Source of the DNA: Candidatus Woesearchaeota archaeon
Lineage (GTDB): Archaea > Nanobdellota > Nanobdellia > Woesearchaeales > B72-G16
Reading direction: 5' to 3'
Length of the DNA: 37,789 bases
Assembly: GCA_003650545.1 (NCBI GenBank)
Contig: QMQO01000010.1
Location: 1 to 37,789, forward strand
This document shows, piece by piece, positions 10,140-37,789 of this stretch (its first letter is position 1; every line of letters begins with the position of its first letter). The notes beneath the pieces were generated by a model. That model saw only the letters and a list, made by a program, of their open reading frames with translations. It had not been told where the DNA came from and searched no databases. Both the position numbers and the translations under genes were made by a program.

Positions 10140-10294
10140 TCCCCGCCGCCGGAGTTTCCTGCTACGAATCTTAACCCGCAACATCTCGAACCAGCAACCT
10201 TTCGGTAACGGCTGGTTGCCTCTCATCACAGCTAAAATAGCCATTTCAAAACAACGTCTACAGCCGAATGCTCTACCAATTGAGCTAGGCGGGG
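10140..10294 (-). tRNA. tRNA-Tyr(GTA) with two introns (37/38 and 59/60)
   Basis: Minus strand: acceptor CCCCGCC/GGCGGGG+A73 (C1-G72, archaeal Tyr), D stem GCTC/GAGC, anticodon stem TTCGG/CCGAA with CT-GTA-G, T stem GCTGG/CCGGC. Inserts at 10207-10257 (51 nt) and 10154-10184 (31 nt). Confidence 0.92.
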
Positions 10295-10401: not shown

Positions 10402-11382
10402 ATGCCGACAAAATGCGCAGTATTCTGTCCTGAAAGCCTTGACGGAATAGCTGCAGCTAGCGTTCTCATCAGGATGTTCAAATTACGCAGATATAGCTAT
10501 AAGGTTGACTTCATTAGCTATGATAATGCTAATGAAAAATTCAATGAGATGACTAATCTTACAGCCACCATGATATTCGTACTAGACTTTTCACCAGAGG
10601 AACTGATTGACATAGAAAAAAAAATAAAAGCTCTTGAAAAGAACAACAACAAAATAGTTTATTGGAATTCTCATCATCCGATTTCCAAAGATAAATACGA
10701 ACTTCTCAGAAGGATGGTAAAGATTGTAGAATTCTCAGGAGAGATTAAAGGATTAAAGAAACCTAGTGAGAAATTATGTGCAACAGATCTTGTTGCTAAC
10801 CGTTTCATGAAGGCAGACTTTGTTAGTCAGACATTAAAGACTATTGCTCATGATAAAGAGTTTTGGTTAAGACAAGATGAACGTTCAAAAAAGTTAGCAG
10901 ATATAATTGCATCGGGCTATGATGTTAAAAAACTAATAGATTCTTTAAGCAGAGGTGTTTATTGGAGTGACAGTTTAGAAAAATTTAGAGATGAATATCT
11001 AATAAAAAAAGCTGAGAAACTTAAAAAAGTTGAGCAAACAGCCATTGTTAAAAGGTTCGGGAGCATAAGGATTGGTTTTGCATATGGTTCAAGTATATTA
11101 TCTAGTTCAGAAGCAGCTCAACTTGTTATTGATAGTAAAGCGGTCATGATTGCGGCTGTTATTGGCAGAGATGGAAAAATAAGTTTTAGAAGATCAGAGG
11201 ATTGTGTAGTTGATCTTGAGCAGCTGGCAAAGAAATTTGGTGGTGGGGGAAACCAATATGCTGCAGCAGGTAAAATCAATCTAAACCATATTTATCTTAA
11301 ATCAATCAATAGCCAGAAAAACTTTGAAAAATCTGTTTTCTATGCAGCTAACAAAATTGAAAACTTTTTGGCTAATCTGTAA
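10402..11382 (+). CDS. DHH/DHHA1 phosphoesterase-family protein with degenerate motifs
   Basis: SLDG, VLDF, YWNSHH, ISFR, GGGGNQYAAAG. Confidence 0.75.
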   Translation: MPTKCAVFCPESLDGIAAASVLIRMFKLRRYSYKVDFISYDNANEKFNEMTNLTATMIFVLDFSPEELIDIEKKIKALEKNNNKIVYWNSHHPISKDKYELLRRMVKIVEFSGEIKGLKKPSEKLCATDLVANRFMKADFVSQTLKTIAHDKEFWLRQDERSKKLADIIASGYDVKKLIDSLSRGVYWSDSLEKFRDEYLIKKAEKLKKVEQTAIVKRFGSIRIGFAYGSSILSSSEAAQLVIDSKAVMIAAVIGRDGKISFRRSEDCVVDLEQLAKKFGGGGNQYAAAGKINLNHIYLKSINSQKNFEKSVFYAANKIENFLANL

Positions 11383-11498: not shown

Positions 11499-14486
11499 TT
11501 ATCCCATCACAACGATTAGAGGTCTTAAGCGGACAACTCTTTTTGCTATACCGCTCTCGTGCATTATATCTACAACTTCATTAACATCTTTGTAGACTCC
11601 TGGCGCTTCCTCAGCTACACCTTTCAAAGAATGTCCCTTAACAATGATGCCTTGCTTTGCCATATCCCTTACAACATCAGAACCTCTGAATTGCCTCAAT
11701 GCTTGATGTCTGCTCATCACTCTTCCAGCACCATGGCAAGCAGAGCCAAATGTTTCATTCATCCCTTGTGCAGTACCATGTAATATATAACTATAAGTAC
11801 CCATTGTTCCACCGATTAGAACAGGTTGCCCTATCTTCATATATTTTTCAGGGATCTCCTCTCTTCCAGGACCAAATGCTCTTGTAGCACCTTTTCTCAT
11901 CACACATAGTTGCATTACATTGCCATTAACATCGTGTTTTTCTAGCTTTGCTGTGTTATGACCTATGTCATATAAAACTTCTATATCAGAATCCTTTAAC
12001 CCAAGCACAGGGCAGGTAGCTTGTCTAACTAGATGGGTTATAGCTTGTCTGTTTGAGAATGCCATGTTTATTCCACAATTCACTGCGGAAAAATACTTTT
12101 TGCCTTCTGGAGAGTTAAATGGTGCACAAACAAGTTCACGCTCTCTTATAGGTATTTTATATTTTTTAGATGCAGCATCGAGTTCTTTTAGATAATCTGT
12201 ACCAATCTGATGGCCATAGGCTCTACTGCCACAATGAATGCTTATTACTACTTGATCCTTCTTAAGATTGTAGGCTTTAGCTGCATCTTCATCGTATACT
12301 TCCTCAACATATTGCACCTCTAAGTAATGATTTCCGCTACCGAGAGTTCCTACTTGTTTTAGCTGTCTTTGTTTTGCTATATTACTTACGTTATCTGGAT
12401 TAGCACCAGCAACACAACCATGCTCTTCAGTATATTCAAGATCTTGTTTTAAGCCATAGCCAAGGTTTATGACATATTTTGCACCTTTCACAGCAACCTC
12501 ATCTAGCATGTCTGGATCCATCTTGATCTCACCCTTACTACCCAAACCTGCTGGTACTGTATTATATAGTGCATCTGTTAGCTGTTGTTGTATTTTTATT
12601 ACATCTTCTCTCATCAACGGTGTCCTCAATGTACGAACGCCACAATTTGATACTATTATATTATTTGCAATAAAGCTATGTGTTTTTGGTATGTTGAAAT
12701 CATAAACAAAACCATCATACCCCTCCTTCAAGATTACCTCAACCTTATCAAACAAGCAGCCAAATTCTTTAATTTCTCTTATTTTGGTTTTGACAAATTC
12801 ACTGAACGGCGGAAAGCTTAACGCTGTTTTTTGTTCAGCATTACGATGATAATGTCTTCTGATAAATCTTCTATTAATTATAGACGATCCTAATAACTTC
12901 TGAATCTCTTTAAGCGTTAATCCTTTTCTCTTTAAATCTTTGATTTTTAATGCAGCTTCTCTTCGTCTCTTGGTTAAAAGTTTTTTTTCTTTTATATACA
13001 ATATAGCTATTTGTGATAATAAGTTCTTCTTTTTGTTATAGCTAAAACCTATTCTTGACCACAATCGCAAAAGATTATCTTCATTTGAAGAGATTTTCAA
13101 TTTCAACCTATCGACAGGACCATGTTTATCGTGGTGATCTTTTCGTTGTAATAGTCTATGACAACCAACTCTAAATTCTTCCAATAGAGACATTAATTGT
13201 ATTACTATTTCTCGTCCAGAATTAACAACCTTTTTATTCTTGTCTATTGATATTGTAGGACAGGTTAAGCCAGTATTAGTATGAGCTATGGGAGACGAGA
13301 GCTCGGCTCCAAAGAATCCTGATAAAAACAATCTTTTTACCCATAGAGGACTTTCCATTATCCATTTTGGTATGGTATAAGGTGTTATAGTTTTTTCACC
13401 GCTAGGGAAACCTAATTTAAAAAAGAGCTTTACTAACAATTTAGAAGACACGCGCAACTCATGATTTTTTGTTGGTGATTCAACTTTGCTTTTAACTTTG
13501 CAATAATTATTAATTGTAACATCATGTTCTGTTGTACCAGTGTAGATCATCCCTGAAAAACCTAACCTGGTAAAATCACTTTGAATTTCTTTTAAATCAT
13601 CTTTTGGACCGCAAATGTTGAGATAACCATTTTGACTTGATATATAGACTCTTCTGGCACCAAATAAGTAACCAAATAACCTAATCAAAATAGGTAATTT
13701 AGGGTTCTTTAAGTTCAGTGGCAATAAGTTTCTTTTTTTTAATTCGTCTTTTTCTTGTTCCGTAAATGTATCTTCCCTAACAAGCACTCTGTCTTTGATA
13801 GTTTCTTGATATTCGCATCCTTCAAATGGATGAATTGCTATTTCTTGGCCTTTTCCCAAATCTCCAGATCGAACCATACCCATTTTTGTTAATATAGGAT
13901 GGTCTGCAGTGACATTAATAGTGTACCCCAATTTAGTTTTAATTTTCAGAATTGGTTCTGAATGCTTCCTCTTCATAATATAAAGAGCGTGTTTAGAAGA
14001 GAAACATTTCTGGTTAATATCAAATGAAACTAGTGACTGTATGTATTTCATTGATTTTAGGGTGTAGTCTGCATGAGCATTTTCAACTTCGATGAAGTCA
14101 GTCTCAAAATCTTTTATTTTCTTATAATAACCAAAGTCAGTAAGAATTCTAGAGTCCCCTGTCAAACAATTAATATCAAAGCCAACGCCTGCAACAGTTA
14201 TTATTCCATTCTCAATATCAAACGCACCAACACCACCAATTGGAAATCCATAGCCGGGATGTACATCAGGCATTGCTAAGCTTGCTTTCTGGATCCCTGG
14301 CAGCATAGCAACATTTCTTATTTGTGATAGAGCGTTCCATTGTTTACCAGCTTCAATATCTTTCTTCAGTTCATCAACAATATGGTCATTAGCATAGACC
14401 CGACCAGAAACTAACATTTCTCCCTCTTTAGGTATTTCATATACAAAATCTCTTATTTTTTTAATAGGAATTTTTTCTATACCCAT
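11499..14486 (-). CDS. rtcB: tRNA-splicing ligase RtcB, intein-containing (about 487 aa after splicing)
   Basis: MPDVHPGYGFPIG, GFDIN|CG, GTLGSGNHY, HCGSR, HNTA, HGAGR, EEAPGVYK. Confidence 0.97.
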   Translation of the reverse strand: MGIEKIPIKKIRDFVYEIPKEGEMLVSGRVYANDHIVDELKKDIEAGKQWNALSQIRNVAMLPGIQKASLAMPDVHPGYGFPIGGVGAFDIENGIITVAGVGFDINCLTGDSRILTDFGYYKKIKDFETDFIEVENAHADYTLKSMKYIQSLVSFDINQKCFSSKHALYIMKRKHSEPILKIKTKLGYTINVTADHPILTKMGMVRSGDLGKGQEIAIHPFEGCEYQETIKDRVLVREDTFTEQEKDELKKRNLLPLNLKNPKLPILIRLFGYLFGARRVYISSQNGYLNICGPKDDLKEIQSDFTRLGFSGMIYTGTTEHDVTINNYCKVKSKVESPTKNHELRVSSKLLVKLFFKLGFPSGEKTITPYTIPKWIMESPLWVKRLFLSGFFGAELSSPIAHTNTGLTCPTISIDKNKKVVNSGREIVIQLMSLLEEFRVGCHRLLQRKDHHDKHGPVDRLKLKISSNEDNLLRLWSRIGFSYNKKKNLLSQIAILYIKEKKLLTKRRREAALKIKDLKRKGLTLKEIQKLLGSSIINRRFIRRHYHRNAEQKTALSFPPFSEFVKTKIREIKEFGCLFDKVEVILKEGYDGFVYDFNIPKTHSFIANNIIVSNCGVRTLRTPLMREDVIKIQQQLTDALYNTVPAGLGSKGEIKMDPDMLDEVAVKGAKYVINLGYGLKQDLEYTEEHGCVAGANPDNVSNIAKQRQLKQVGTLGSGNHYLEVQYVEEVYDEDAAKAYNLKKDQVVISIHCGSRAYGHQIGTDYLKELDAASKKYKIPIRERELVCAPFNSPEGKKYFSAVNCGINMAFSNRQAITHLVRQATCPVLGLKDSDIEVLYDIGHNTAKLEKHDVNGNVMQLCVMRKGATRAFGPGREEIPEKYMKIGQPVLIGGTMGTYSYILHGTAQGMNETFGSACHGAGRVMSRHQALRQFRGSDVVRDMAKQGIIVKGHSLKGVAEEAPGVYKDVNEVVDIMHESGIAKRVVRLRPLIVVMG
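12645..14168 (-). mobile_element. 508-aa intein with LAGLIDADG-type endonuclease region
   Basis: Starts CLTGDSRILT, block B TADHPIL, block F VYDFNI, ends IIVSN followed by extein Cys. Confidence 0.95.
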
Positions 14487-14518
14487 TATATCACCTTTTA
14501 AACTTCGATATGTTATTT

Positions 14519-14941
14519 TTAAACGTCAACTACACATTGAAGTATGTGCTTACCACTCTTCTCTTCGTACTTTAGCCCATAATAAGTTGCAGCTTTAACT
14601 TCTTCTTTGATATCATGTTTGTCTTGATCAATTGTTTCGCCATAGGCTTTTGCCCTCAAATAATATTTCTTATTTTTATATTTAATACTTACCTTAAACT
14701 CTTTAAAAAACATATCTTTGATATCTTTTTCACTTACCAATTTATTTAACCATTCCACATATAACGAAGGGATGTCATCAGCTTCACAACTAATATTAAT
14801 CTCTTGTAGTGTTTCAACTGTATCAAGTTCAACCATCACTCCAAACATAGCTTTTGCTCCTTCCTGGAAAGCTTCCTCAAGGGTATCCCCCATAGCTAAG
14901 ATTCCAATATCTGCTTCATGTTCTAAGTATTTATATGGCAT
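14519..14941 (-). CDS. Archease
   Basis: YLEHEADIG...EVKAATYY...VVDV; immediately upstream of rtcB. Start moved to MPYKY. Confidence 0.95.
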   Translation of the reverse strand: MPYKYLEHEADIGILAMGDTLEEAFQEGAKAMFGVMVELDTVETLQEINISCEADDIPSLYVEWLNKLVSEKDIKDMFFKEFKVSIKYKNKKYYLRAKAYGETIDQDKHDIKEEVKAATYYGLKYEEKSGKHILQCVVDV

Positions 14942-15047
14942 AATATCAAGAAAAATATGTTGTTTATAAAGTATAACTAATAGTAGTAGTAACAACACAG
15001 TAGTAAAAAACCAAATGTTTAAATACCTATTTAACCATTATTGATGT

Positions 15048-17868: not shown

Positions 17869-17954
17869 ATTAAAATCTGTTAGACCATTATGAGGATTTG
17901 TGGTGATATTTTTCCCCCTAAAATTTTATATATTTCAAGGTTGTAATAGTTTAT

Positions 17955-19079
17955 ATGACACTTGAAGCAGAACTCAGGCAACCAACAGCTTCACAGATTA
18001 TAGAACCTATACTTAAGAAACATAGAATAAGCAAAAATAGATTTGCCAAAAGTGTGTACTATAGTATTAGAAAGCTAACTAAAACTGACGATATTGTTAT
18101 ACCTGAGTTCTTTGATACTGCATTTAGCTATACTTTTATAAAAAGTGATAAGTCAGTTGAGGGTGATTTTCTGAGAAATAAGATCTCGGTAGGCTATACA
18201 AACATTGTTGAATCGATAGAACAACTAAAGCCAGGTCAGGTCTTGGTAATTCCTAAACATGTTAATCTTGTGCCAAATGAAGCAGGAAATATTAGCAATA
18301 ACCCTAAGAAAAAGTTCTCTAAGCATGGTGATGTTGTAAAGTTAAAGAGATACAATTCTATAGACGATGCAATTCAAGACAGAGCTCACCCTAAAAGACT
18401 TCTCAAAATAGCTGTCACAAACACAAAAATGTATAAGAACTATATTGGTTATGACTTCCAAGGTGTTGGAGATGGTCGCGGATCTATTTATAACAAGGTT
18501 ATGATCGAAGATATAATCGAGGCAAAAAAGATCTTCATGTATTGCAAGGATAATGGAGATGAAACATTGGAAGTAGTAAATTACTATAACGGCAATAGCT
18601 TTAATAATAAATCAGTAAAGGTCCGCGTTAGTTCGGTTGAGAAGAAAGAACGCGATATTTACGAATTTGACATTGATAATCTTCCACTTAGAAAAAAACA
18701 CTCTAGAGATTACTCGTGTTATGCAAATTGGACAAGGATCCACAGTTTACACGATTGTAAAGGAAGAATTGATTCTGGTTTACATAGAAGAACCCAGAGA
18801 GGTACATATAATGCATGCAAGCACATGATTGCTGGCTTTTGGGAGGTTATGATTGATATAAAAAAGAAAACAAAAGGACAGTATTATCTAATTAATCCAT
18901 TCCGCTGCCCAACAGAAGAGCTCGAAGAATACGCTAACAGGCTTAGAACGCAAGTATTGATTGAGTGTTATAATCCCTATAAAAGAAGAACAGAGCTAAG
19001 AAAACTAACAAAGATAGAGCGTGAAGTACTAGACTGGAAAAGGATTACATTATATGGATATAAAAGAAATTTTAATTAA
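17955..19079 (+). CDS. Hypothetical protein with SWIM-like zinc-binding motif
   Basis: HDC-x19-CKH followed by a hydrophobic helix (MIAG); TATA TTTATATA about 25 nt upstream. Confidence 0.6.
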   Translation: MTLEAELRQPTASQIIEPILKKHRISKNRFAKSVYYSIRKLTKTDDIVIPEFFDTAFSYTFIKSDKSVEGDFLRNKISVGYTNIVESIEQLKPGQVLVIPKHVNLVPNEAGNISNNPKKKFSKHGDVVKLKRYNSIDDAIQDRAHPKRLLKIAVTNTKMYKNYIGYDFQGVGDGRGSIYNKVMIEDIIEAKKIFMYCKDNGDETLEVVNYYNGNSFNNKSVKVRVSSVEKKERDIYEFDIDNLPLRKKHSRDYSCYANWTRIHSLHDCKGRIDSGLHRRTQRGTYNACKHMIAGFWEVMIDIKKKTKGQYYLINPFRCPTEELEEYANRLRTQVLIECYNPYKRRTELRKLTKIEREVLDWKRITLYGYKRNFN

Positions 19080-19132
19080 TCTAAAAAGTAAGTTTAATAA
19101 AGAACTTCTCCTTTCTGACAGTGGGTGATAGT

Positions 19133-19900
19133 ATGAAAGCTGTCTGGAAAGGTTCTATTTCATTTGGCATGGTTAATATTCCTATAAAGTTATATACAGC
19201 TACCGAGCCACAAGCTCTCGGTTTCCGCTTACTTTGTACAAAATGTCATACCCCTCTTCACTACCGCCGTTTTTGTCCAAAATGCAAAAAAGAAATTGAA
19301 TGGGAAGATGTAGTCAAAGGTCTTGAAATAGCCAAGGGTAAATACTATGTTCTGACAAAGGAAAAGATCGAAAAACTAAAACCAGAAAAAAGTGATATAA
19401 TAGAAATAATAGAGTTTGTTGACATGAATCAGATTCACCCAATTTATTTTGATAAAAGTTATTATGTAGCTCCCATACAAAAAAAAGAAAAAGCATACTT
19501 CCTTTTTAAAGAGGTTCTACAAGATACTGCAAAGGTTGCAATCGGCCGTTTTATAATGCGAGAGAAAGAATATATCTGCGCAATAGAAAGCTACATCAAT
19601 GGTCTGCTTCTAACTACACTGAACTATGCTTATGAAATTCGTGATATTAAAAAAATAGAAGAACTAAAGAATCCTCCAAAGTTAAAAGAAGAAGAACTTA
19701 AACTGGCTCGACAATTAATCAACAAACTATACGAAAAAGAATTTGATGTATCTGAATTTAAAGATACATTTGCACAACAATTAAAAAGGTTAATTAAAAA
19801 AGGTATAAAAACAGAATTAATAGAAGAAATCAAGGCAACTAAGAAACATAAGAAAGAACCAACTTTGATGGAGGCACTTAAAGCCAGCATTAAAAAATGA
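19133..19900 (+). CDS. ku: Prokaryotic Ku (non-homologous end-joining protein)
   Basis: WKGSISFGMVNIPIKLY, IEIIEFV, YFDKSYY, LNYAYEIR, FKDTF, LMEALKAS; SD GGTGA before ATG 19133. Confidence 0.95.
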   Translation: MKAVWKGSISFGMVNIPIKLYTATEPQALGFRLLCTKCHTPLHYRRFCPKCKKEIEWEDVVKGLEIAKGKYYVLTKEKIEKLKPEKSDIIEIIEFVDMNQIHPIYFDKSYYVAPIQKKEKAYFLFKEVLQDTAKVAIGRFIMREKEYICAIESYINGLLLTTLNYAYEIRDIKKIEELKNPPKLKEEELKLARQLINKLYEKEFDVSEFKDTFAQQLKRLIKKGIKTELIEEIKATKKHKKEPTLMEALKASIKK

Positions 19901-20829
19901 ATTCTATTGCACCTATGCTTACAAAGCTAGGAGAGAAAAGTGATCTGAATAAGAAAGGTTTTATTTCAGAACCTAAGCTAGATGGTACACGAGCTATTTT
20001 AATCAAAAAAGGCAAAAAAATCCAGCTGATCAACAGACGCTACAGAAATATAACTTATCGCTATCCGGAGTTCAAGTTTGACAAAAACATAAAAGCAAAT
20101 TTTTGCATCCTAGATGGAGAAATCGTCGTTTATAAAGATGGATTGCCAAATTTCAACCTGCTACAAAAACGTGACCAACTTGAAAATAAAACAATTATAG
20201 AACTAAGGTCAAAGTTGTACCCTGCAACATTTGTAGTGTTTGACATTCTTAAACTTGAAAGAAGAGATACAAAAAAGCTTCCTTTAATAGAAAGGAAAAA
20301 ATTATTGGAGAAAATAATAAAGCAAGATAAAACAATAGAAACAGTGTTATATACAGAAGACATAAAGGCCCTGTGGCGACATATCCAAAAGAAAAAGCTA
20401 GAAGGTATCGTGCTAAAAAAGAAATACAGTAAGTACTATCCAGGTAAACGCACACCACTCTGGCTAAAAATAAAAAACATTAAAACAATCGACGCTATTA
20501 TCGTTGGTTATACTAAGGAAAAACGTAAGATAAGTTCGCTTGTCACAGCGTTATACATAAAAGGTAAACTAACCTATATCGGCAGGGTTGGGACTGGCTT
20601 TACTGAAGCATTTATTGATGAATTTTATAAAAAACTAAAAAAGATCGAACTAAAGAAACCATTAATTAAGATCGAGACGAGTAAAAAGATTCATTATGTT
20701 AAGCCCATATTCATAGCAGAAATTCGTTTCTTAGAGTTCAGCAGAGAAAGCATAATGAGGGCGCCAGTATTTTTAAGACTGAGAACGGATAAATTGCCGA
20801 AGGATTGCACACTAGAGGATCAAGTATGA
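19897..20829 (+). CDS. Stand-alone ATP-dependent DNA ligase (LigD ligase-domain type)
   Basis: EPKLDG, LDGE, VFDIL, EGIVLK, WLKIK, GRVGTGF; ATGA overlap with ku. Confidence 0.92.
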   Translation: MNSIAPMLTKLGEKSDLNKKGFISEPKLDGTRAILIKKGKKIQLINRRYRNITYRYPEFKFDKNIKANFCILDGEIVVYKDGLPNFNLLQKRDQLENKTIIELRSKLYPATFVVFDILKLERRDTKKLPLIERKKLLEKIIKQDKTIETVLYTEDIKALWRHIQKKKLEGIVLKKKYSKYYPGKRTPLWLKIKNIKTIDAIIVGYTKEKRKISSLVTALYIKGKLTYIGRVGTGFTEAFIDEFYKKLKKIELKKPLIKIETSKKIHYVKPIFIAEIRFLEFSRESIMRAPVFLRLRTDKLPKDCTLEDQV

Positions 20830-21374
20830 TTTTAGAAAGTATAAATAAACGGATTCGTAACTGCAAACGCTGCCAACTTTATACACAAGGTAGAGCTGTA
20901 CCTGGCGAAGGACCTGATGACGCAGAAATTATGCTAGTCGGACAAGCACCAGGGAAAATAGAGAGCATTCGCGGAAAACCTTTTATTGGAAAAGCAGGGC
21001 GGTTTCTTGACGAATTGTTAGAAATAGCAGATCTCAAAAGAGAAAAAGTCTTTATCACGTCTGTTCTAAAACACTATCCACCAAAAAACCGTCCTCCAAG
21101 AAAAGATGAAATCCTTGCGTGTAAACCTTTTCTAGAGCAACAGATAGAAATAATAAAACCAAAAGTTATTGTTCTCATGGGAAATGTTGCTATCAAGAGT
21201 ATTCTAGATAACCAATCTTTGAAAGTGACAGAGATGCATGGAAAAAAAAGAGAAAAGTCTGGGAGAAGATATCTTCTAACATTTCATCCTGCTGCAGGGA
21301 TGAGATTTCCTAAAATAAAAAAACTAATCAAAAGTGATTTTAAAAAACTGAAAAATATAAAAAATAAGGTTTAA
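20826..21374 (+). CDS. Family-4-like uracil-DNA glycosylase
   Basis: CKRC, GQAPG, PFIGKAG, NRPP, HPAA; ATGA overlap with the ligase. Confidence 0.9.
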   Translation: MILESINKRIRNCKRCQLYTQGRAVPGEGPDDAEIMLVGQAPGKIESIRGKPFIGKAGRFLDELLEIADLKREKVFITSVLKHYPPKNRPPRKDEILACKPFLEQQIEIIKPKVIVLMGNVAIKSILDNQSLKVTEMHGKKREKSGRRYLLTFHPAAGMRFPKIKKLIKSDFKKLKNIKNKV

Positions 21375-25608: not shown

Positions 25609-26046
25609 GTGAGAAAAATGGCAAGGAAAAATCCTCAGGATCGCGGCATGGGTGTGTTTCGCGATTGGGTAGATCATTTAAGAAATGCTTCGAAAGACAA
25701 GATCATTCTAGTGCAATACAAAACAGACAAAGATGAACTTGAACAACTTGGTATAAAAAACATTCTTTATTTGACAAAACCGGAATACAAAGTAATAGAA
25801 CAAATAGCATCTACAAGCAAAGAATGTATTCTTCTATTTAATGTGAATGATAAGAGTAACGAACTCTGCCAGAAAATAAGAGCAAAGTTAGAAGAAAATG
25901 GTGTAAAGGTTAATACACGATTTAGAAAACTAATGTTCACAACCGATATGAGGGAAATCCGTGGTTTAATAAAATACATCCGAAACAAAGCAACTTGGGA
26001 AGAAGGAAAAAGGGTTGCAATTGATATCTTTCCTGAAAAAAAATAA
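25609..26046 (+). CDS. Small Toprim-fold protein with degenerate acidic motifs
   Basis: IILVQYKTDKDEL corresponds to VEGxxD; ILLFNVN corresponds to ILxDxD; C-terminal similarity to small archaeal Toprim proteins. Confidence 0.6.
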   Translation: MRKMARKNPQDRGMGVFRDWVDHLRNASKDKIILVQYKTDKDELEQLGIKNILYLTKPEYKVIEQIASTSKECILLFNVNDKSNELCQKIRAKLEENGVKVNTRFRKLMFTTDMREIRGLIKYIRNKATWEEGKRVAIDIFPEKK

Positions 26047-26114
26047 AACACATTGTGATTTAATTACAATTAAAATTTTTAATTATGATTAGAATTATTA
26101 AATAGAAAAATTCA

Positions 26115-26214
26115 TGGGAGCTGACGTCTAAGCTTAGACTGAACTTTTCTTTCGAAAAATTCTTTATCAATAATATTTCTATTATTGATTGGTGTCTAAG
26201 TAACTCCGTCAGCT
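26115..26214 (-). ncRNA. Candidate structured small RNA of unknown family
   Basis: Four stems (8, 7, 10 and 9 bp), two GAAA tetraloops, upstream TATA box and downstream T-tract on the minus strand. Confidence 0.65.
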
Positions 26215-26236
26215 AAAGTAAAGAAAGTTATACTAA

Positions 26237-26250
26237 TATTTAAATCTTTT
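26237..26250 (-). promoter_or_regulatory. BRE-TATA promoter for the candidate RNA
   Basis: Minus-strand AAAAGA-TTTAAATA ending 22 nt before the first stem. Confidence 0.55.
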
Positions 26251-26327
26251 TAATTAAATTTGATTTTTCTCAAACCTTTAATTTTTCATCCACAAGATAT
26301 ATAAACAAACACATCCTAACCAAAGAT

Positions 26328-27044
26328 ATGAACCAAATTCTGGTGGAAGCTGGATTAACAGACTCTGAAGCCAAAGTTTATCTTACTTTGTTGGACCTCG
26401 GCATGGATCTTGCAGGAACCATAGCTAGAAAATCTGGCATTCATAGACGGTCTGTTTATGATATCTTGGATAGACTTATTGAAAAAGGCTTAGTTAGTTA
26501 TATTGTAAAAAATAATCAACGCCATTACGAAGCAACAGACCCAATTAGATTAATAGAGTTGTTAAAGGAAAAAGAAAGAAAGATTCAAGAGGTGCTTCCT
26601 CGGCTACAATTAAAATACTCGATGACTCGCGAGAAACAAGAAACAAATTTCTACCGTGGTAAAAACGGACTAAAGACTGTGTTTGAAGATCAATTAAAAG
26701 AGGGAAAAGAAATCTTAATATTTGGGGCAAATGTTGATGTTAATGAGGTTATTAAGTTTTACTTCCCACATTTTGATAGAGCTCGCGTCCAGAAAAAGAT
26801 TAAGGTTAAGTTTATCTTTAGCGAAGATGCCAGAGACAATCCTGCCATAAAAAAGATTCCTCTAAAAGAAGTCAGGTATATTCCTAAAGGCTTTTCGAGC
26901 CCTGCAGCCACATACATTTACGGTAATAAGGTTGCGATTATTCTGTGGAGCGAAAATCCACTTGCAATTCTTATCAAACAGAAAGAAATAGCAGATAACT
27001 ATAAACAGTTCTTTAAATTTGTCTGGGATAGTGCTAAAAAATGA
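26328..27044 (+). CDS. TrmB-family transcriptional regulator
   Basis: GLTDSEAKVYLTLL...IARKSGIHRRSVYDILDRLIEKGLV; C-terminal IYGNKVAI domain. Confidence 0.9.
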   Translation: MNQILVEAGLTDSEAKVYLTLLDLGMDLAGTIARKSGIHRRSVYDILDRLIEKGLVSYIVKNNQRHYEATDPIRLIELLKEKERKIQEVLPRLQLKYSMTREKQETNFYRGKNGLKTVFEDQLKEGKEILIFGANVDVNEVIKFYFPHFDRARVQKKIKVKFIFSEDARDNPAIKKIPLKEVRYIPKGFSSPAATYIYGNKVAIILWSENPLAILIKQKEIADNYKQFFKFVWDSAKK

Positions 27045-27046
27045 TA

Positions 27047-27886
27047 TTAAAATATTTTTTTTATCTCATTCAACCTGGTGTTGTAATCTATTGAAGACCG
27101 AAACAGATTCCAAAAAACCTTCTGCAACCATGCGATCCAATCGGGATCATATATTTCATAAAAGATTCTTGTATTTTTGTGTAGTTCACCTTTTTTGTAG
27201 GTCTTTAATTGTTCTTCATTCTTGAATCTTGCAACCTTATCGTCTATTATAAAACCACGTAATGGTTGGTAGCAATGCTTGATCTCAACTAAGTCAGAGT
27301 ACTTTGCGGTGAGGCTAGTTAATTTATTTAGGTTACTAATAGAAGCAATATTCACCCTTGTCAATATCTTAAATCGAATTTTTCTTTTTAACAATTCTTC
27401 TATCACAGAGAAGATCTTTACATTGTTTTCTTCTATATTGATAAATGACAGATTCCCTGAAAAACAATACACCTGGTTAATTGCCTTCCTGAATAAAGAA
27501 ACAATCTGTTGGTTCTTGCTCACCTCTTCTTTATCATACTCTTCTAAAATCGCTTTCTTCTTATCTTCTTGCACATACTGAAAGATCTCCATAAAATCAA
27601 AATCTGTCTTAGCCCTGCTGTTCCTCAGTTGGTAGTATAAATTCTCTCTGACATCATCTGTTACCAGACTATCAGAATGATTATAGAACACAACTTTTAA
27701 AGCGCCCTGAGTGCCTTTTCTAAATGTCTTTACATCAACCAATCCTGTTAGATCCTTTATTTTCTTTACGTAACTGTCTGTTGTAACCCAGCTCTTTCCA
27801 ATAAGCCTTGAGACATCTTGAATGGTTCTTGGTTCTTTTTTAACATAGTCAGTAATCTGCTTAATAACTTCCTCTTTTAATGCCAT
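27047..27886 (-). CDS. Winged-HTH protein with PLD-like C-terminal domain
   Basis: PRTIQDVSRLIGKSWVTTDSY HTH; FKILTR...RGFIIDD...WLQKVFWNLF resembles a PLD fold without HKD. Confidence 0.6.
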   Translation of the reverse strand: MALKEEVIKQITDYVKKEPRTIQDVSRLIGKSWVTTDSYVKKIKDLTGLVDVKTFRKGTQGALKVVFYNHSDSLVTDDVRENLYYQLRNSRAKTDFDFMEIFQYVQEDKKKAILEEYDKEEVSKNQQIVSLFRKAINQVYCFSGNLSFINIEENNVKIFSVIEELLKRKIRFKILTRVNIASISNLNKLTSLTAKYSDLVEIKHCYQPLRGFIIDDKVARFKNEEQLKTYKKGELHKNTRIFYEIYDPDWIAWLQKVFWNLFRSSIDYNTRLNEIKKIF

Positions 27887-29401: not shown

Positions 29402-29556
29402 GGGCCTATGGTGTAATGGATACTTGCGTTGCTTTATGCAAACTTATGCAAGCTATAGAGCACTCTTGGCTTCGGCTCTAATGAGAAGACACCAAGCAAT
29501 TCCGGTTCGAATGGGAATATGGGAATCCAGTTTTCACGGATGTCCGGATAGGCCCA
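29402..29556 (+). tRNA. tRNA-Arg(TCG) with three introns (D-loop, 37/38, 59/60)
   Basis: Acceptor GGGCCTA/TAGGCCC+A, D stem GTGT/GCAC, anticodon stem CTTGG/CCAAG with CT-TCG-G, T stem TCCGG/CCGGA. Introns 29422-29458, 29476-29490 and 29512-29542; 72 nt after removal. Confidence 0.92.
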
Positions 29557-29834
29557 TTTCAAATTAATTGTTCTTAAACAGAATTAACCTTCTTTATGCA
29601 ATAAAGTGACAATAAAGTGAAAAGATTATTATAAAATAATCAGCATTATTTATAAAGCGTGATCTTAATTGATGAGTGTTCTTAATTGATGTTCTTAATC
29701 TTAATTTGGTTTTTTAAATGTAATTAAATCTTCAAAATATTTTGTCATTTTTTAGTAGCTATATCCAGAAAACCACAATCTTTATAAACCAACCCCAATT
29801 CTACAATCAAAGAGAGAGAAGAAGACGCTGGGTA

Positions 29835-29874
29835 GGGAATCCACGTTTTCTGGATATTGATAGGAGAGATTCCC
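29835..29874 (+). promoter_or_regulatory. 5'-UTR hairpin covering the SD-like sequence of pop5
   Basis: GGGAATC/GATTCCC plus TTTTCTG/TAGGAGA, ending directly before ATG 29875. Confidence 0.5.
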
Positions 29875-30222
29875 ATGAGGGTTAAACCAATATTACCAAG
29901 TTTAAAAGAGAAAAAACGTTATCTTGCTTATGAAATTATAGCAGATAAAAGGATAGACGCACAATCTGCAGAAGATGTAATAACCAAAACTAGTTTAGAT
30001 TATCTAGGCGCTCTAGGATATGGAGAAGCAGGAATTCAAGTTTTGAAAGAGACTCATGATAATAACCGCGGTCTAATTAGAGTTGGCCACAAGCATGTCG
30101 ATAGACTCAAGGCAGCACTAATTTTTATCACAAAAATAAAAAACCAAAATGTAATTGTGCGCTCTCTTGGTGTGAGTGGCGTGATCAAGAAAGCAAAAGA
30201 AAAATACTTGGAGGCAAAATGA
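29875..30222 (+). CDS. rnp2: RNase P protein Pop5/Rpp14
   Basis: LPSLKEKKRY, GLIRV, LGVSGVIKKA; canonical position upstream of psmA. Confidence 0.92.
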   Translation: MRVKPILPSLKEKKRYLAYEIIADKRIDAQSAEDVITKTSLDYLGALGYGEAGIQVLKETHDNNRGLIRVGHKHVDRLKAALIFITKIKNQNVIVRSLGVSGVIKKAKEKYLEAK

Positions 30223-34641: not shown

Positions 34642-35664
34642 TTATTCTATCTTGGGATAAACACCAGGTTTCATAAATACCTTGTCAACTTTAAATGCTA
34701 GTCCTTTTTTTTCTTTAAGAATTTGCTTTGCAACCATTTCTGCTTTGCCTAGAGCAACAAGTTCACCTTTCAAAGTCATTATTGCAACAGTATCGCCAAT
34801 GTCAAACTCTTTATTCATGCTAACAACCCCTGGAACTTTTAAATTAGCACCATGGCACAATGTATCAACTGCACTATCCTGAATCCAAACCTTTGGAAGG
34901 TGGCTGACTGCAAACTCAACTGGCAAAATAATGTTATACAACATCTTATCGTTACCTTCTTCTTTGTAATAATAGAAAGCATCTTTTAGATCTTGCAGTG
35001 TAAAAGATTCTTCTTCCTTGAACGGTCCTGCTTTAGTCCTGCGAAGCTCTTGCATGTTAGCACCAACATCTAAACGCTCACCTACATCGTGTACGAGTTT
35101 TCTTATATAAGTTCCTGCTTGACAGCCAATTCTAAAAAGAACATCTTTATTATCTTCGCTGATCTCTATTATATCAATGTAATAAATTGTTCTATATCTT
35201 TGCTGTCTTTTGATTGCAGACTTAATTGGAGGTAATTGTTTAATTCTACCAACAAATTCATTTAGCATAACTTTTTTGACGATTGAAGCTTCAACTGGTT
35301 TATGCAGGTGCATTAAACAGACATACTCTTTCCCTGCAGGTAGCAGCGTTTGAACAATTCTTGTAGCTCTGCCTAGCGCAATAGGCAAAACACCAGTGAC
35401 TTTTGGGTCTAATGTTCCTGAGTGCCCTGCTTTTTTAATTCCCAAGATTTCTTTTACATAAGAGCTTACTTGATGACTCGTCGGGCCAGAAGGTTTGTCT
35501 AAGTTGACTATTCCATATTCAAGAAGTTCTTCTACTGACCGTTCATTTGGTTTACAGCCAAATCTATCACTGGTTTTAACATTATCTATTTTTACAACTA
35601 CAGCTTTGTTACGTTTTTCAAATGGCAACTTGTTTAGACCTGAGATTTTGCTTCCACTCCTCAT
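34642..35664 (-). CDS. cbf5: Pseudouridine synthase Cbf5 (TruB family) with PUA domain
   Basis: DKPSGPTSHQV, GHSGTLDP, GTYIRKL, LRRTKAG. Confidence 0.96.
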   Translation of the reverse strand: MRSGSKISGLNKLPFEKRNKAVVVKIDNVKTSDRFGCKPNERSVEELLEYGIVNLDKPSGPTSHQVSSYVKEILGIKKAGHSGTLDPKVTGVLPIALGRATRIVQTLLPAGKEYVCLMHLHKPVEASIVKKVMLNEFVGRIKQLPPIKSAIKRQQRYRTIYYIDIIEISEDNKDVLFRIGCQAGTYIRKLVHDVGERLDVGANMQELRRTKAGPFKEEESFTLQDLKDAFYYYKEEGNDKMLYNIILPVEFAVSHLPKVWIQDSAVDTLCHGANLKVPGVVSMNKEFDIGDTVAIMTLKGELVALGKAEMVAKQILKEKKGLAFKVDKVFMKPGVYPKIE

Positions 35665-37670: not shown

Positions 37671-37789
37671 GTAAACAACTGTGGGCTGAAGCCCACAGCA
37701 TTTCGCTTGGGTAGCGTGGCTATTCAAGCTTAGGCACAAAAACCTACCAATGATTTTTGTGCACGCATACGCTGTTGCTTAAGTCGAGC
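37671..37789. mobile_element. IS200/IS605-like terminal palindrome followed by structured sequence (runs off window)
   Basis: GTAAACAA-CTGTGGGC-TGAA-GCCCACAG, then hairpins at 37705-37729 and 37734-37762; GC-richer than local intergenic DNA. Confidence 0.6.

Follow-up and report, generated by a model that had tools for sequence, protein, structure and literature searches.

Positions 1 to 37,789 of contig QMQO01000010.1 (assembly GCA_003650545.1), the whole of which we call the window, come from a DPANN archaeon of the Woesearchaeota/Nanoarchaeota group. Between a gene for a small Toprim protein and a gene for a TrmB-like regulator, both on the plus strand, lies the subject of this report, an intergenic element of 100 nt on the minus strand (26214-26115; G+C 0.34). 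It combines a very stable branched fold with a TATA box placed as in leaderless genes of the same window, and its 6x6 internal loop can be redrawn as a strict bulge-helix-bulge (BHB) motif in the polarity of a tRNA intron, which is the point that is new here. The structure and the promoter geometry are striking; the element remains a candidate. DPANN archaea have tiny genomes and heavily fragmented tRNA genes, and we know of almost no non-coding RNAs described from them beyond the universal ones.

Fold and promoter of the element

Read 5′ to 3′ on the minus strand, the first half of the element is AGCUGACG-GAGUUA-CUUAGAC-ACCA, followed by hairpin 1 (AUCAAUAAUA-GAAA-UAUUAUUGAU) and AAA, and the second half is hairpin 2 (GAAUUUUUC-GAAA-GAAAAGUUC), followed by A-GUCUAAG-CUUAGA-CGUCAGCU-CCCA. 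This is exactly what an earlier, sequence-only reading of the stretch had written, and RNAfold reproduces the architecture described there: in both the minimum free energy (MFE) structure and the centroid, a closing stem of 8 bp leads through the 6x6 loop into a stem of 7 bp and on to a three-way junction that bears the two hairpins. The MFE is −37.8 kcal/mol against a shuffle mean of −14.8 kcal/mol (z = −8.05; MFE frequency 0.56), and none of 200 shuffles was equally stable. The stability of the element is far beyond chance for its composition. By raw MFE it ranks second among 15,076 sliding 100-nt windows of the window, the sole top-ranker with a G+C of 0.34; with energy regressed on G+C it comes eighth, counted by distinct regions, in a set of 12,894 intergenic windows taken from the window and 80 related loci.

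The plus strand forms a mirror structure that is weaker by about 5 kcal/mol (−32.6 kcal/mol, z = −5.57). The cues by which the earlier reading had chosen the minus strand hold: both loops read GAAA there and UUUC on the plus strand, and the U.G pair of hairpin 2 becomes an A.C mismatch on the plus strand. GNRA-capped hairpins number 274 on both strands of the 81 sources (the window and the 80 loci, 1.19 Mb), and adjacent pairs of them occur only twice, in the element itself and as a weak 6+6-bp case in locus L061; a structure descriptor for two adjacent GNRA hairpins gave no analogue in these sources. The palindrome GTCTAAGCTTAGAC that the earlier reading had pointed out is indeed perfect (26126-26139). 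The loop's 3′ strand (CUUAGA) repeats the sequence of the upper stem's 5′ strand, and an alternative fold with a 3′ hairpin GUCUA-AGCU-UAGAC has −34.4 kcal/mol, 3.4 above the MFE.

Two observations concern the sequence following the element. In its trailer (26091-26114) the GAAUUUUUC of hairpin 2 recurs, and the trailer is 79% complementary over 24 nt to hairpin 2 (26140-26163) and matches the top of hairpin 1 (26172-26183) at 11 of 12 positions; a longer transcript may refold through the trailer, or the match may be an AT-rich coincidence. The longest inverted repeat of the window, 59 nt with 71% complementarity and AT-rich (26057-26115 with 29672-29730), pairs the trailer with the region upstream of the Pop5 gene, possibly by chance.

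The TATA box TTTAAATA is followed by exactly 22 nt and then by A26214, the first base of the closing stem. A spacer of 22 nt between TATA box and start codon is the modal one among the leaderless genes of the window (five of the 27 genes listed; the next spacings occur twice each). It is found at the genes starting at 10402, 17955, 26328, 27886 (minus) and 35664 (minus), and one of the five (27047-27886) has a TATA 8-mer identical to that of the element. TATA-type boxes are rare (41 in 5,532 nt of intergenic DNA, both strands, or 0.0037 per strand-nt), and the chance of a box at the exact position is about 0.4%, or about 2% within ±2 nt, the match having been noticed post hoc. No such box was found when the plus strand upstream of the element was searched. 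Since the spacer is that of five leaderless genes, a minus-strand transcript beginning flush with the closing stem is plausible, and the promoter that the sequence-only reading had proposed stands more firmly than that reading could know. Its T-tract, by comparison, is poor evidence for a terminator: the window has 732 occurrences of TTTTT, about one per 100 nt per strand, and hairpin 2 itself contains a T5 run. A small protein-coding gene was rejected, since the element holds no open reading frames (ORFs) beyond one of 36 codons from a TTG and one of 5 codons from an ATG.

Searches for known families and relatives

The earlier reading had matched the element to no known family, and our searches agree. 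At the gathering score Rfam gave no match anywhere in the window, including to signal recognition particle (SRP) RNA, 5S rRNA, RNase P RNA and self-cleaving ribozymes, and with E ≤ 10 the region 25950-26400 gave only noise of at most 17.4 bits, none of it tRNA, SRP, 5S, RNase P or ribozyme. ARAGORN found no tRNA gene in the window; together with Rfam it also misses two intron-rich tRNA-like genes that are described below. A tRNA was rejected for the element itself, which has no cloverleaf, loops of 4 nt only and no Rfam tRNA match. A C/D box small RNA (sRNA) was likewise rejected: there is no UGAUGA, CUGA occurs only within the closing stem, and the sR60 score of 12.7 bits (gathering 50) is noise. 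Direct reading showed no kink-turn (K-turn), sarcin-ricin or loop E motif, 11-nt tetraloop receptor, hammerhead core, SRP helix 8 or 5S loops.

For homologues we used 80 loci anchored on the TrmB-like protein, which has 701 relatives, those named being Woesearchaeota or Nanoarchaeota; the loci mostly carry such titles as well, and with the window they amount to 1,187,503 bases. The other seven neighbour proteins were found in none of the 80 loci, which are therefore a poor place to look for the RNA. Four universal rRNA motifs had no match in the window or the loci. The phage and plasmid collections gave only short AT-rich blastn matches (E ≥ 0.08). Since gene callers may have called ORFs on homologous elements, we also translated the open frame of 50 codons that crosses the element and compared it with 1.84 billion protein representatives; no homologue was found, the two repetitive matches (several matched stretches; E = 4.7e-6 and 1.2e-4) being judged spurious. 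No such RNA in Woesearchaeota or DPANN was found in the open-access literature searched.

Many dispersed copies, as the sequence-only reading had remarked, would mark a miniature inverted-repeat transposable element (MITE). The element is single-copy in the 37.8 kb of the window and absent from the 80 foreign loci; dispersed copies may exist elsewhere in the source genome.

The internal loop as a candidate splicing site

Read in register, the 6x6 loop offers six oppositions (G.A, A.G, G.A, U.U, U.U and A.C), none of which is a pair; this has a chance of 5%, and with six non-pairs the loop is not a decayed helix. When the first pair of the inner stem is opened, the loop can be redrawn as a strict BHB: an 8-bp outer helix, a 4-bp central helix and a 6-bp inner helix, the outer and inner helices being long enough to flank the motif. 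The central helix GAGU/GCUU consists of G.U, A-U, G-C and U.G; its 5′ strand is followed by the 3-nt bulge UAC, its 3′ strand by the 3-nt bulge AGA. A strict BHB is defined as two 3-nt bulges around a 4-bp helix in the available text of PMC5829648 and PMC4090602, which also describe the motif as the critical, transplantable determinant for the archaeal endonuclease EndA. In pre-tRNA the exon helix runs without a break into the 5′ strand of the central helix (PMC4090602, available text). The polarity in the element is that of pre-tRNA, the 3′ bulge abutting the outer helix (by script, tRNA polarity true and mirror false). On the plus strand the G.U pairs become C.A and A.C by direct reading, so that the motif exists on the minus strand only. 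The BHB conformer has −35.4 kcal/mol against −37.8 for the MFE structure, a cost of 2.4 kcal/mol.

We favour the following course. The element would be a free-standing gene with its own promoter, which on the minus strand specifies a small structured RNA; the transcript would run from A26214 to the T5 run at 26110-26106 or beyond (about 105-110 nt). In the BHB conformer the outer helix would run on into the central helix with the splice-site geometry and polarity of a tRNA intron, the tRNA-splicing endonuclease would cut both bulges between their second and third bases, and RtcB would ligate the ends. One product would be a 73-nt circle (26200-26128) holding a three-way junction, the two GAAA hairpins and a third, 6-bp hairpin; the other would be the joined ends, an 8-bp hairpin with a 7-nt loop and a CCCA tail, and this microhelix of ligated 'exons', tailed by CCA, may be a second product in its own right. 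The coordinates of the parts are given in Table 1.

Table 1. Parts of the element and its flanks, with the basis on which each was assigned
Feature	Position	Strand	Basis or remark
A-rich stretch AAAAAGA resembling a B recognition element (BRE), directly upstream of the TATA box	26245..26251	-	Direct reading; resembles A-rich stretches at leaderless-gene TATA boxes; putative
TATA box TTTAAATA	26237..26244	-	8-mer and 22-nt spacer as in gene 27047-27886
Predicted transcription start A, first base of the closing stem	26214	-	22-nt spacer as in five leaderless genes
Closing (outer) helix, 5′ strand AGCUGACG	26207..26214	-	RNAfold
Closing (outer) helix, 3′ strand CGUCAGCU	26119..26126	-	RNAfold
Internal loop, 5′ side: GAGUUA (26206-26201) and C26200	26200..26206	-	As BHB: GAGU 26206-26203, bulge UAC 26202-26200
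Internal loop, 3′ side: CUUAGA (26132-26127) and G26133	26127..26133	-	As BHB: GCUU 26133-26130, bulge AGA 26129-26127
Inner helix, 5′ strand CUUAGAC	26194..26200	-	RNAfold
Inner helix, 3′ strand GUCUAAG	26133..26139	-	With 26126-26132 forms the 14-nt palindrome
Hairpin 1, perfect 10-bp stem, GAAA loop 26179-26176	26166..26189	-	RNAfold
Hairpin 2, 9-bp stem with one U.G, GAAA loop 26153-26150, internal T5 run	26141..26162	-	RNAfold
Predicted 73-nt excised, circularised segment	26128..26200	-	Putative; BHB cut between second and third bulge bases (rule in the available text of PMC4090602)
CCCA directly after the closing stem	26115..26118	-	Direct reading; significance doubtful
T5 run, possible weak terminator	26106..26110	-	Inside the second GAAUUUUUC copy at 26113-26105

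The closest comparison is with non-tRNA RNAs that are bounded by a BHB and circularised by EndA and RtcB: the pre-16S/23S stems, the permuted SRP RNA of Thermoproteus tenax (in the available text of PMC4731332, a circularised BHB substrate) and the intron in the 5′ untranslated region (UTR) of Haloferax volcanii HVO_1309 (likewise a BHB substrate in that of PMC7714728). As in these, a long terminal helix carries a 3-4-3 BHB with a structured RNA inside, and the ligase and its activator are encoded in the window. Unlike them, the element has an inner RNA of no known family, appears to be a stand-alone 100-nt gene with its own promoter, has a central helix that ends in two G.U pairs, and has no known homologue. 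Archaeal tRNA introns share the geometry and polarity of the motif; those of the window, in our own reading of the genes, are 15 to about 51 nt long and include T-loop introns with UUCG in the central helix. The element differs from them in having no tRNA body, its 'exons' of 14 nt and about 9-20 nt ligating into a bare hairpin. The available text of PMC5829648 links those DPANN endonucleases that have an extra loop to heavily disrupted tRNA genes.

The fold and the promoter geometry are as given above, a BHB can form on steric and energetic grounds, and the window has genes for RtcB and Archease; transcription, cleavage, circularisation and any downstream role of the RNA are inferred. That the element is a real, lineage-specific and independently transcribed minus-strand small RNA we consider probable. 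If it is, processing at the BHB comes somewhat short of an even chance, so that processing into a circular RNA, taken overall, is a tentative proposal. More tentative again is the general form of the proposal, that Woesearchaeota have free-standing genes whose sole product is a BHB-excised circular non-coding RNA, here a 73-nt circle from a leaderless 105-nt precursor made by EndA and RtcB. The substrates of the splicing machinery known so far are tRNA introns, rRNA stems, one mRNA leader and one permuted SRP RNA. If the proposal is true, a stand-alone circular-RNA gene of a new family would widen this list, and the circle would stand for a new EndA-dependent class, distinct from introns, from rRNA intermediates and from permuted forms of known RNAs. 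If the element is only a young palindrome by a chance TATA box, it is of little consequence.

A number of results weigh against circularisation. The BHB pairs have an ensemble probability of at most 0.3%, the competing C-G pair one of 0.96, and the central helix ends in G.U on both sides. Random loops give a strict BHB in tRNA polarity in 3.1-4.5% of cases, so that compatibility with the motif has p of about 0.03-0.045 and was found post hoc; a loose BHB descriptor in the 1.19 Mb counted 372 true against 387 mirror motifs, no enrichment. No EndA gene was found in the window. The T5 run inside hairpin 2 could stop transcription early, and no function follows for either product, circle or ligated hairpin. 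Other results bear on whether there is an RNA at all. With blastn-short and nhmmer the element found nothing credible in the 80 loci, and a single-sequence covariance model run over the 1.19 Mb recovered only the element itself, the best other hit having 17.5 bits (E = 1.1); with no homologue found, there is no conservation or covariation to support the element. The stems are near-perfect, with 34 pairs and one wobble, as a young DNA palindrome would also have them, and folds with DNA parameters are significant on both strands alike (z = −7.10 and −7.13). A functional RNA remains, as the earlier reading had called it, a matter of inference, and the present evidence does not separate an RNA gene from a young palindrome beside a chance TATA box.

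The same promoter and ends would serve a linear small structured RNA in which the loop is not processed. The loop would then be a continuous non-Watson-Crick helix, a site for a protein or a tertiary contact, with the GAAA hairpins as rigid scaffold. The promoter geometry and the GAAA loops count equally for this reading; the symmetric loop is retained in both the MFE structure and the centroid at the frequency and with the C-G pair probability just quoted, and by direct reading three consecutive purine-purine oppositions lie beside the closing helix. It fits no known motif, be it K-turn, sarcin-ricin or loop E, has no Rfam match to E = 10 and no homologues, and leaves the BHB geometry of the loop unexplained; we regard it as possible, with much the same reserve as circularisation. 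More doubtful is a DNA-level palindrome without RNA function, that is a young nested inverted repeat, a mobile or MITE-like remnant or a recognition site for protein or single-stranded DNA, whose TATA box would be fortuitous or reflect divergent promoter activity of the regulator gene. The perfect stems and the strand-neutral DNA folds speak for it, as do other palindromic intergenic elements in related loci, some clearly repeated (L036, L057, L066/L067), the lack of conservation in the 80 loci, and the regulator's operator, whose upstream half is missing in the window, as an insertion could explain. It accounts poorly for GAAA in both loops of one strand, which is very unlikely if the element is strand-neutral, for six loop positions that are all non-complementary where a few decayed pairs would be expected, and for a TATA box at the exact leaderless spacing. 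The element is moreover single-copy in the window and absent from the 80 loci, no target-site duplication is visible by direct reading at either boundary of the inverted repeat, the neighbours are core housekeeping genes with no integrase or transposase, and its palindromes are unlike the TrmB operator.

Three further readings are unlikely. The sequence-only reading had likened the closing stem and its C-CCA to a tRNA acceptor end, and a tRNA-like or minihelix RNA handled by tRNA-end enzymes would have a start flush with the 7-8-bp stem and, in the alternative fold 3.4 kcal/mol above the MFE, a GUCUA-AGCU-UAGAC hairpin stacked on the stem to give 12 bp. Nanoarchaeum equitans has leaderless tRNA genes whose promoter sets the start at the first paired base of the terminal helix, and the predicted start of the element is such a base; unlike that case, the element is no tRNA, the genome has retained RNase P (Pop5), and leaders precede its tRNA-like genes. 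The likeness to an acceptor end is not supported, since the two tRNA-like genes of the window have leaders and no encoded CCA, UUU following instead, so that a tRNA-like gene here would look different from the element. Neither ARAGORN nor the tRNA clan of Rfam gave a match, no cloverleaf and no signature of a D-loop or T-loop is present, and none of the loops has 7 nt (that of the T-arm-like hairpin has 4). By chance alone CCA would stand at offset 1 in about 1/64 of cases, and its presence there was noticed post hoc; we judge this reading very improbable. We give as little credit to a plus-strand structure, either a 3′ UTR stabiliser or terminator of the Toprim gene or a 5′ regulatory structure of the TrmB-like gene, although both flanking genes are on that strand and its fold is significant in itself. 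The TrmB-like gene, leaderless like its orthologues, is served by a TATA box of its own, downstream of the element and 22 nt ahead of the ATG, which places the element outside that mRNA; the stretch from the stop codon of the Toprim gene to the element contains a T5 run, and the UUUC loops, the A.C mismatch and the weaker fold all disfavour the plus strand. A divergent H/ACA pseudouridylation guide is the least probable of all and, its boxes missing, largely refuted. Its case is the geometry of an 8-bp lower stem, a 6+6-nt pocket and a 7-bp upper stem, with CCA standing for the ACA box 14-15 nt from the pocket top, and the presence of Cbf5. As against archaeal H/ACA guide sRNAs, with which the element shares lower stem, symmetric loop, upper stem and the 14 nt from pocket top to 3′ tail, it has CCC/CCA in place of an ACA box (CCCAUG after 14 nt), no K-turn or K-loop, no 3-nt bulge with tandem G.A/A.G, and a three-way junction where the apical loop should be; the 3′ pocket strand would compete with the identical upper-stem strand, and the only Rfam H/ACA score (SNORA40, 14.7 bits, E = 7.1) lies outside the element at 26274-26314.

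One further likeness concerns the SRP RNA S domain and 5S rRNA. Like them, the element has a closing helix and internal loop followed by two side-by-side hairpins, and in SRP RNA both hairpins carry GNAR-type tetraloops. Unlike theirs, the hairpins of the element are perfect and have no helix-8 or 5S loops, the whole is 100 nt long, and it has no score at E ≤ 10.

Neighbouring genes and other palindromes

The window is core chromosome, with genes for SRP54, RtcB, Archease, Ku, DNA ligase, Pop5, the proteasome alpha subunit, SBDS, Rrp4/41/42 and Cbf5, and no integrase or transposase was found in it. The Toprim protein upstream of the element (25609-26046, plus) is labelled RNase M5-like by some sources; the TrmB-like regulator is at 26328-27044 (plus). 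RtcB (11499-14998, minus) has 995 amino acids with an intein and lies directly downstream of Archease, about 11 kb from the element. Pop5 is at 29857-30222 and Cbf5 at 34642-35664.

The two tRNA-like genes came to light while G+C-rich structured spots were being checked, and their exon and intron assignment is our own reading. A tRNA-Tyr(GUA)-like gene (10140-10294, minus) appears to have two introns, of about 51 nt after position 37 and about 31 nt in the T-loop, the former with a C-box-like GUGAUGA; the gene encodes no CCA (UUU follows) and has a leader of about 13 nt and a TATA spacer of 35. A tRNA-Arg(UCG)-like gene (about 29402-29557, plus) appears to have three, after the D-arm, in the anticodon loop and in the T-loop, the last with a near-strict BHB (UUCG/CGGA); this gene too is followed by UUU and not by CCA, and its TATA spacer is 58. 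Five introns in two tRNA-like genes within 38 kb, together with RtcB and Archease, indicate that the genome relies on the splicing machinery.

Orthologues of the TrmB-like gene (L001-L080) have an operator-like inverted repeat about 30-60 nt upstream of the gene, TGTGGTGA, a spacer of 6-7 nt and TCACCACA, abutting the TATA box. A loose pattern finds it in 64 of the 79 orthologue upstream regions and a strict one in 24 of them. The element is not this operator: its palindromes are unrelated to the TGTGGTGA/TCACCACA repeat and lie about 80 bp further upstream. Upstream of its regulator the window retains only the right half (about 26281-26290), and the missing left half is compatible with a rearrangement or insertion upstream of the gene, not proof of one. 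An exact left half occurs at 17899, upstream of an unannotated gene (17955-19079) that may be a target. At L006, L013, L026, L040 and L076 (and L011) a divergent protein-coding gene on the opposite strand shares the operator region, and its 5′ leader has a conserved small hairpin of the ACCGAA..TTCGG type.

Strongly palindromic intergenic elements of other shapes are present in related genomes. The hairpin ACTCCRGC-(3-4 nt)-GCYGGAGT recurs in several Woesearchaeota loci; sites of hairpins and palindromes are L036 2764-2868, L047 15879-15983, L057 7073-7177, L066 1-105 and 4561-4665, and L067 31-135 and 4525-4629. L066 and L067 also hold nested palindromes whose ends are of the AAAAACGAGCGCC type; these resemble a repeated element of MITE-like kind, and one of them forms a three-way junction right after the TrmB-like gene.

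Two further features of the window may be mentioned. Genes for Ku, an ATP-dependent DNA ligase and uracil-DNA glycosylase stand in a row at 19121-21374 and make up, within a DPANN genome of small size, a compact cluster for end joining and repair. Of all 100-nt windows, the one with the most stable fold is 37676-37775 on the plus strand (−40.1 kcal/mol, 49% G+C), where three G+C-rich hairpins stand right after a pyruvate:ferredoxin oxidoreductase gene, at the very end of the window and cut off there.

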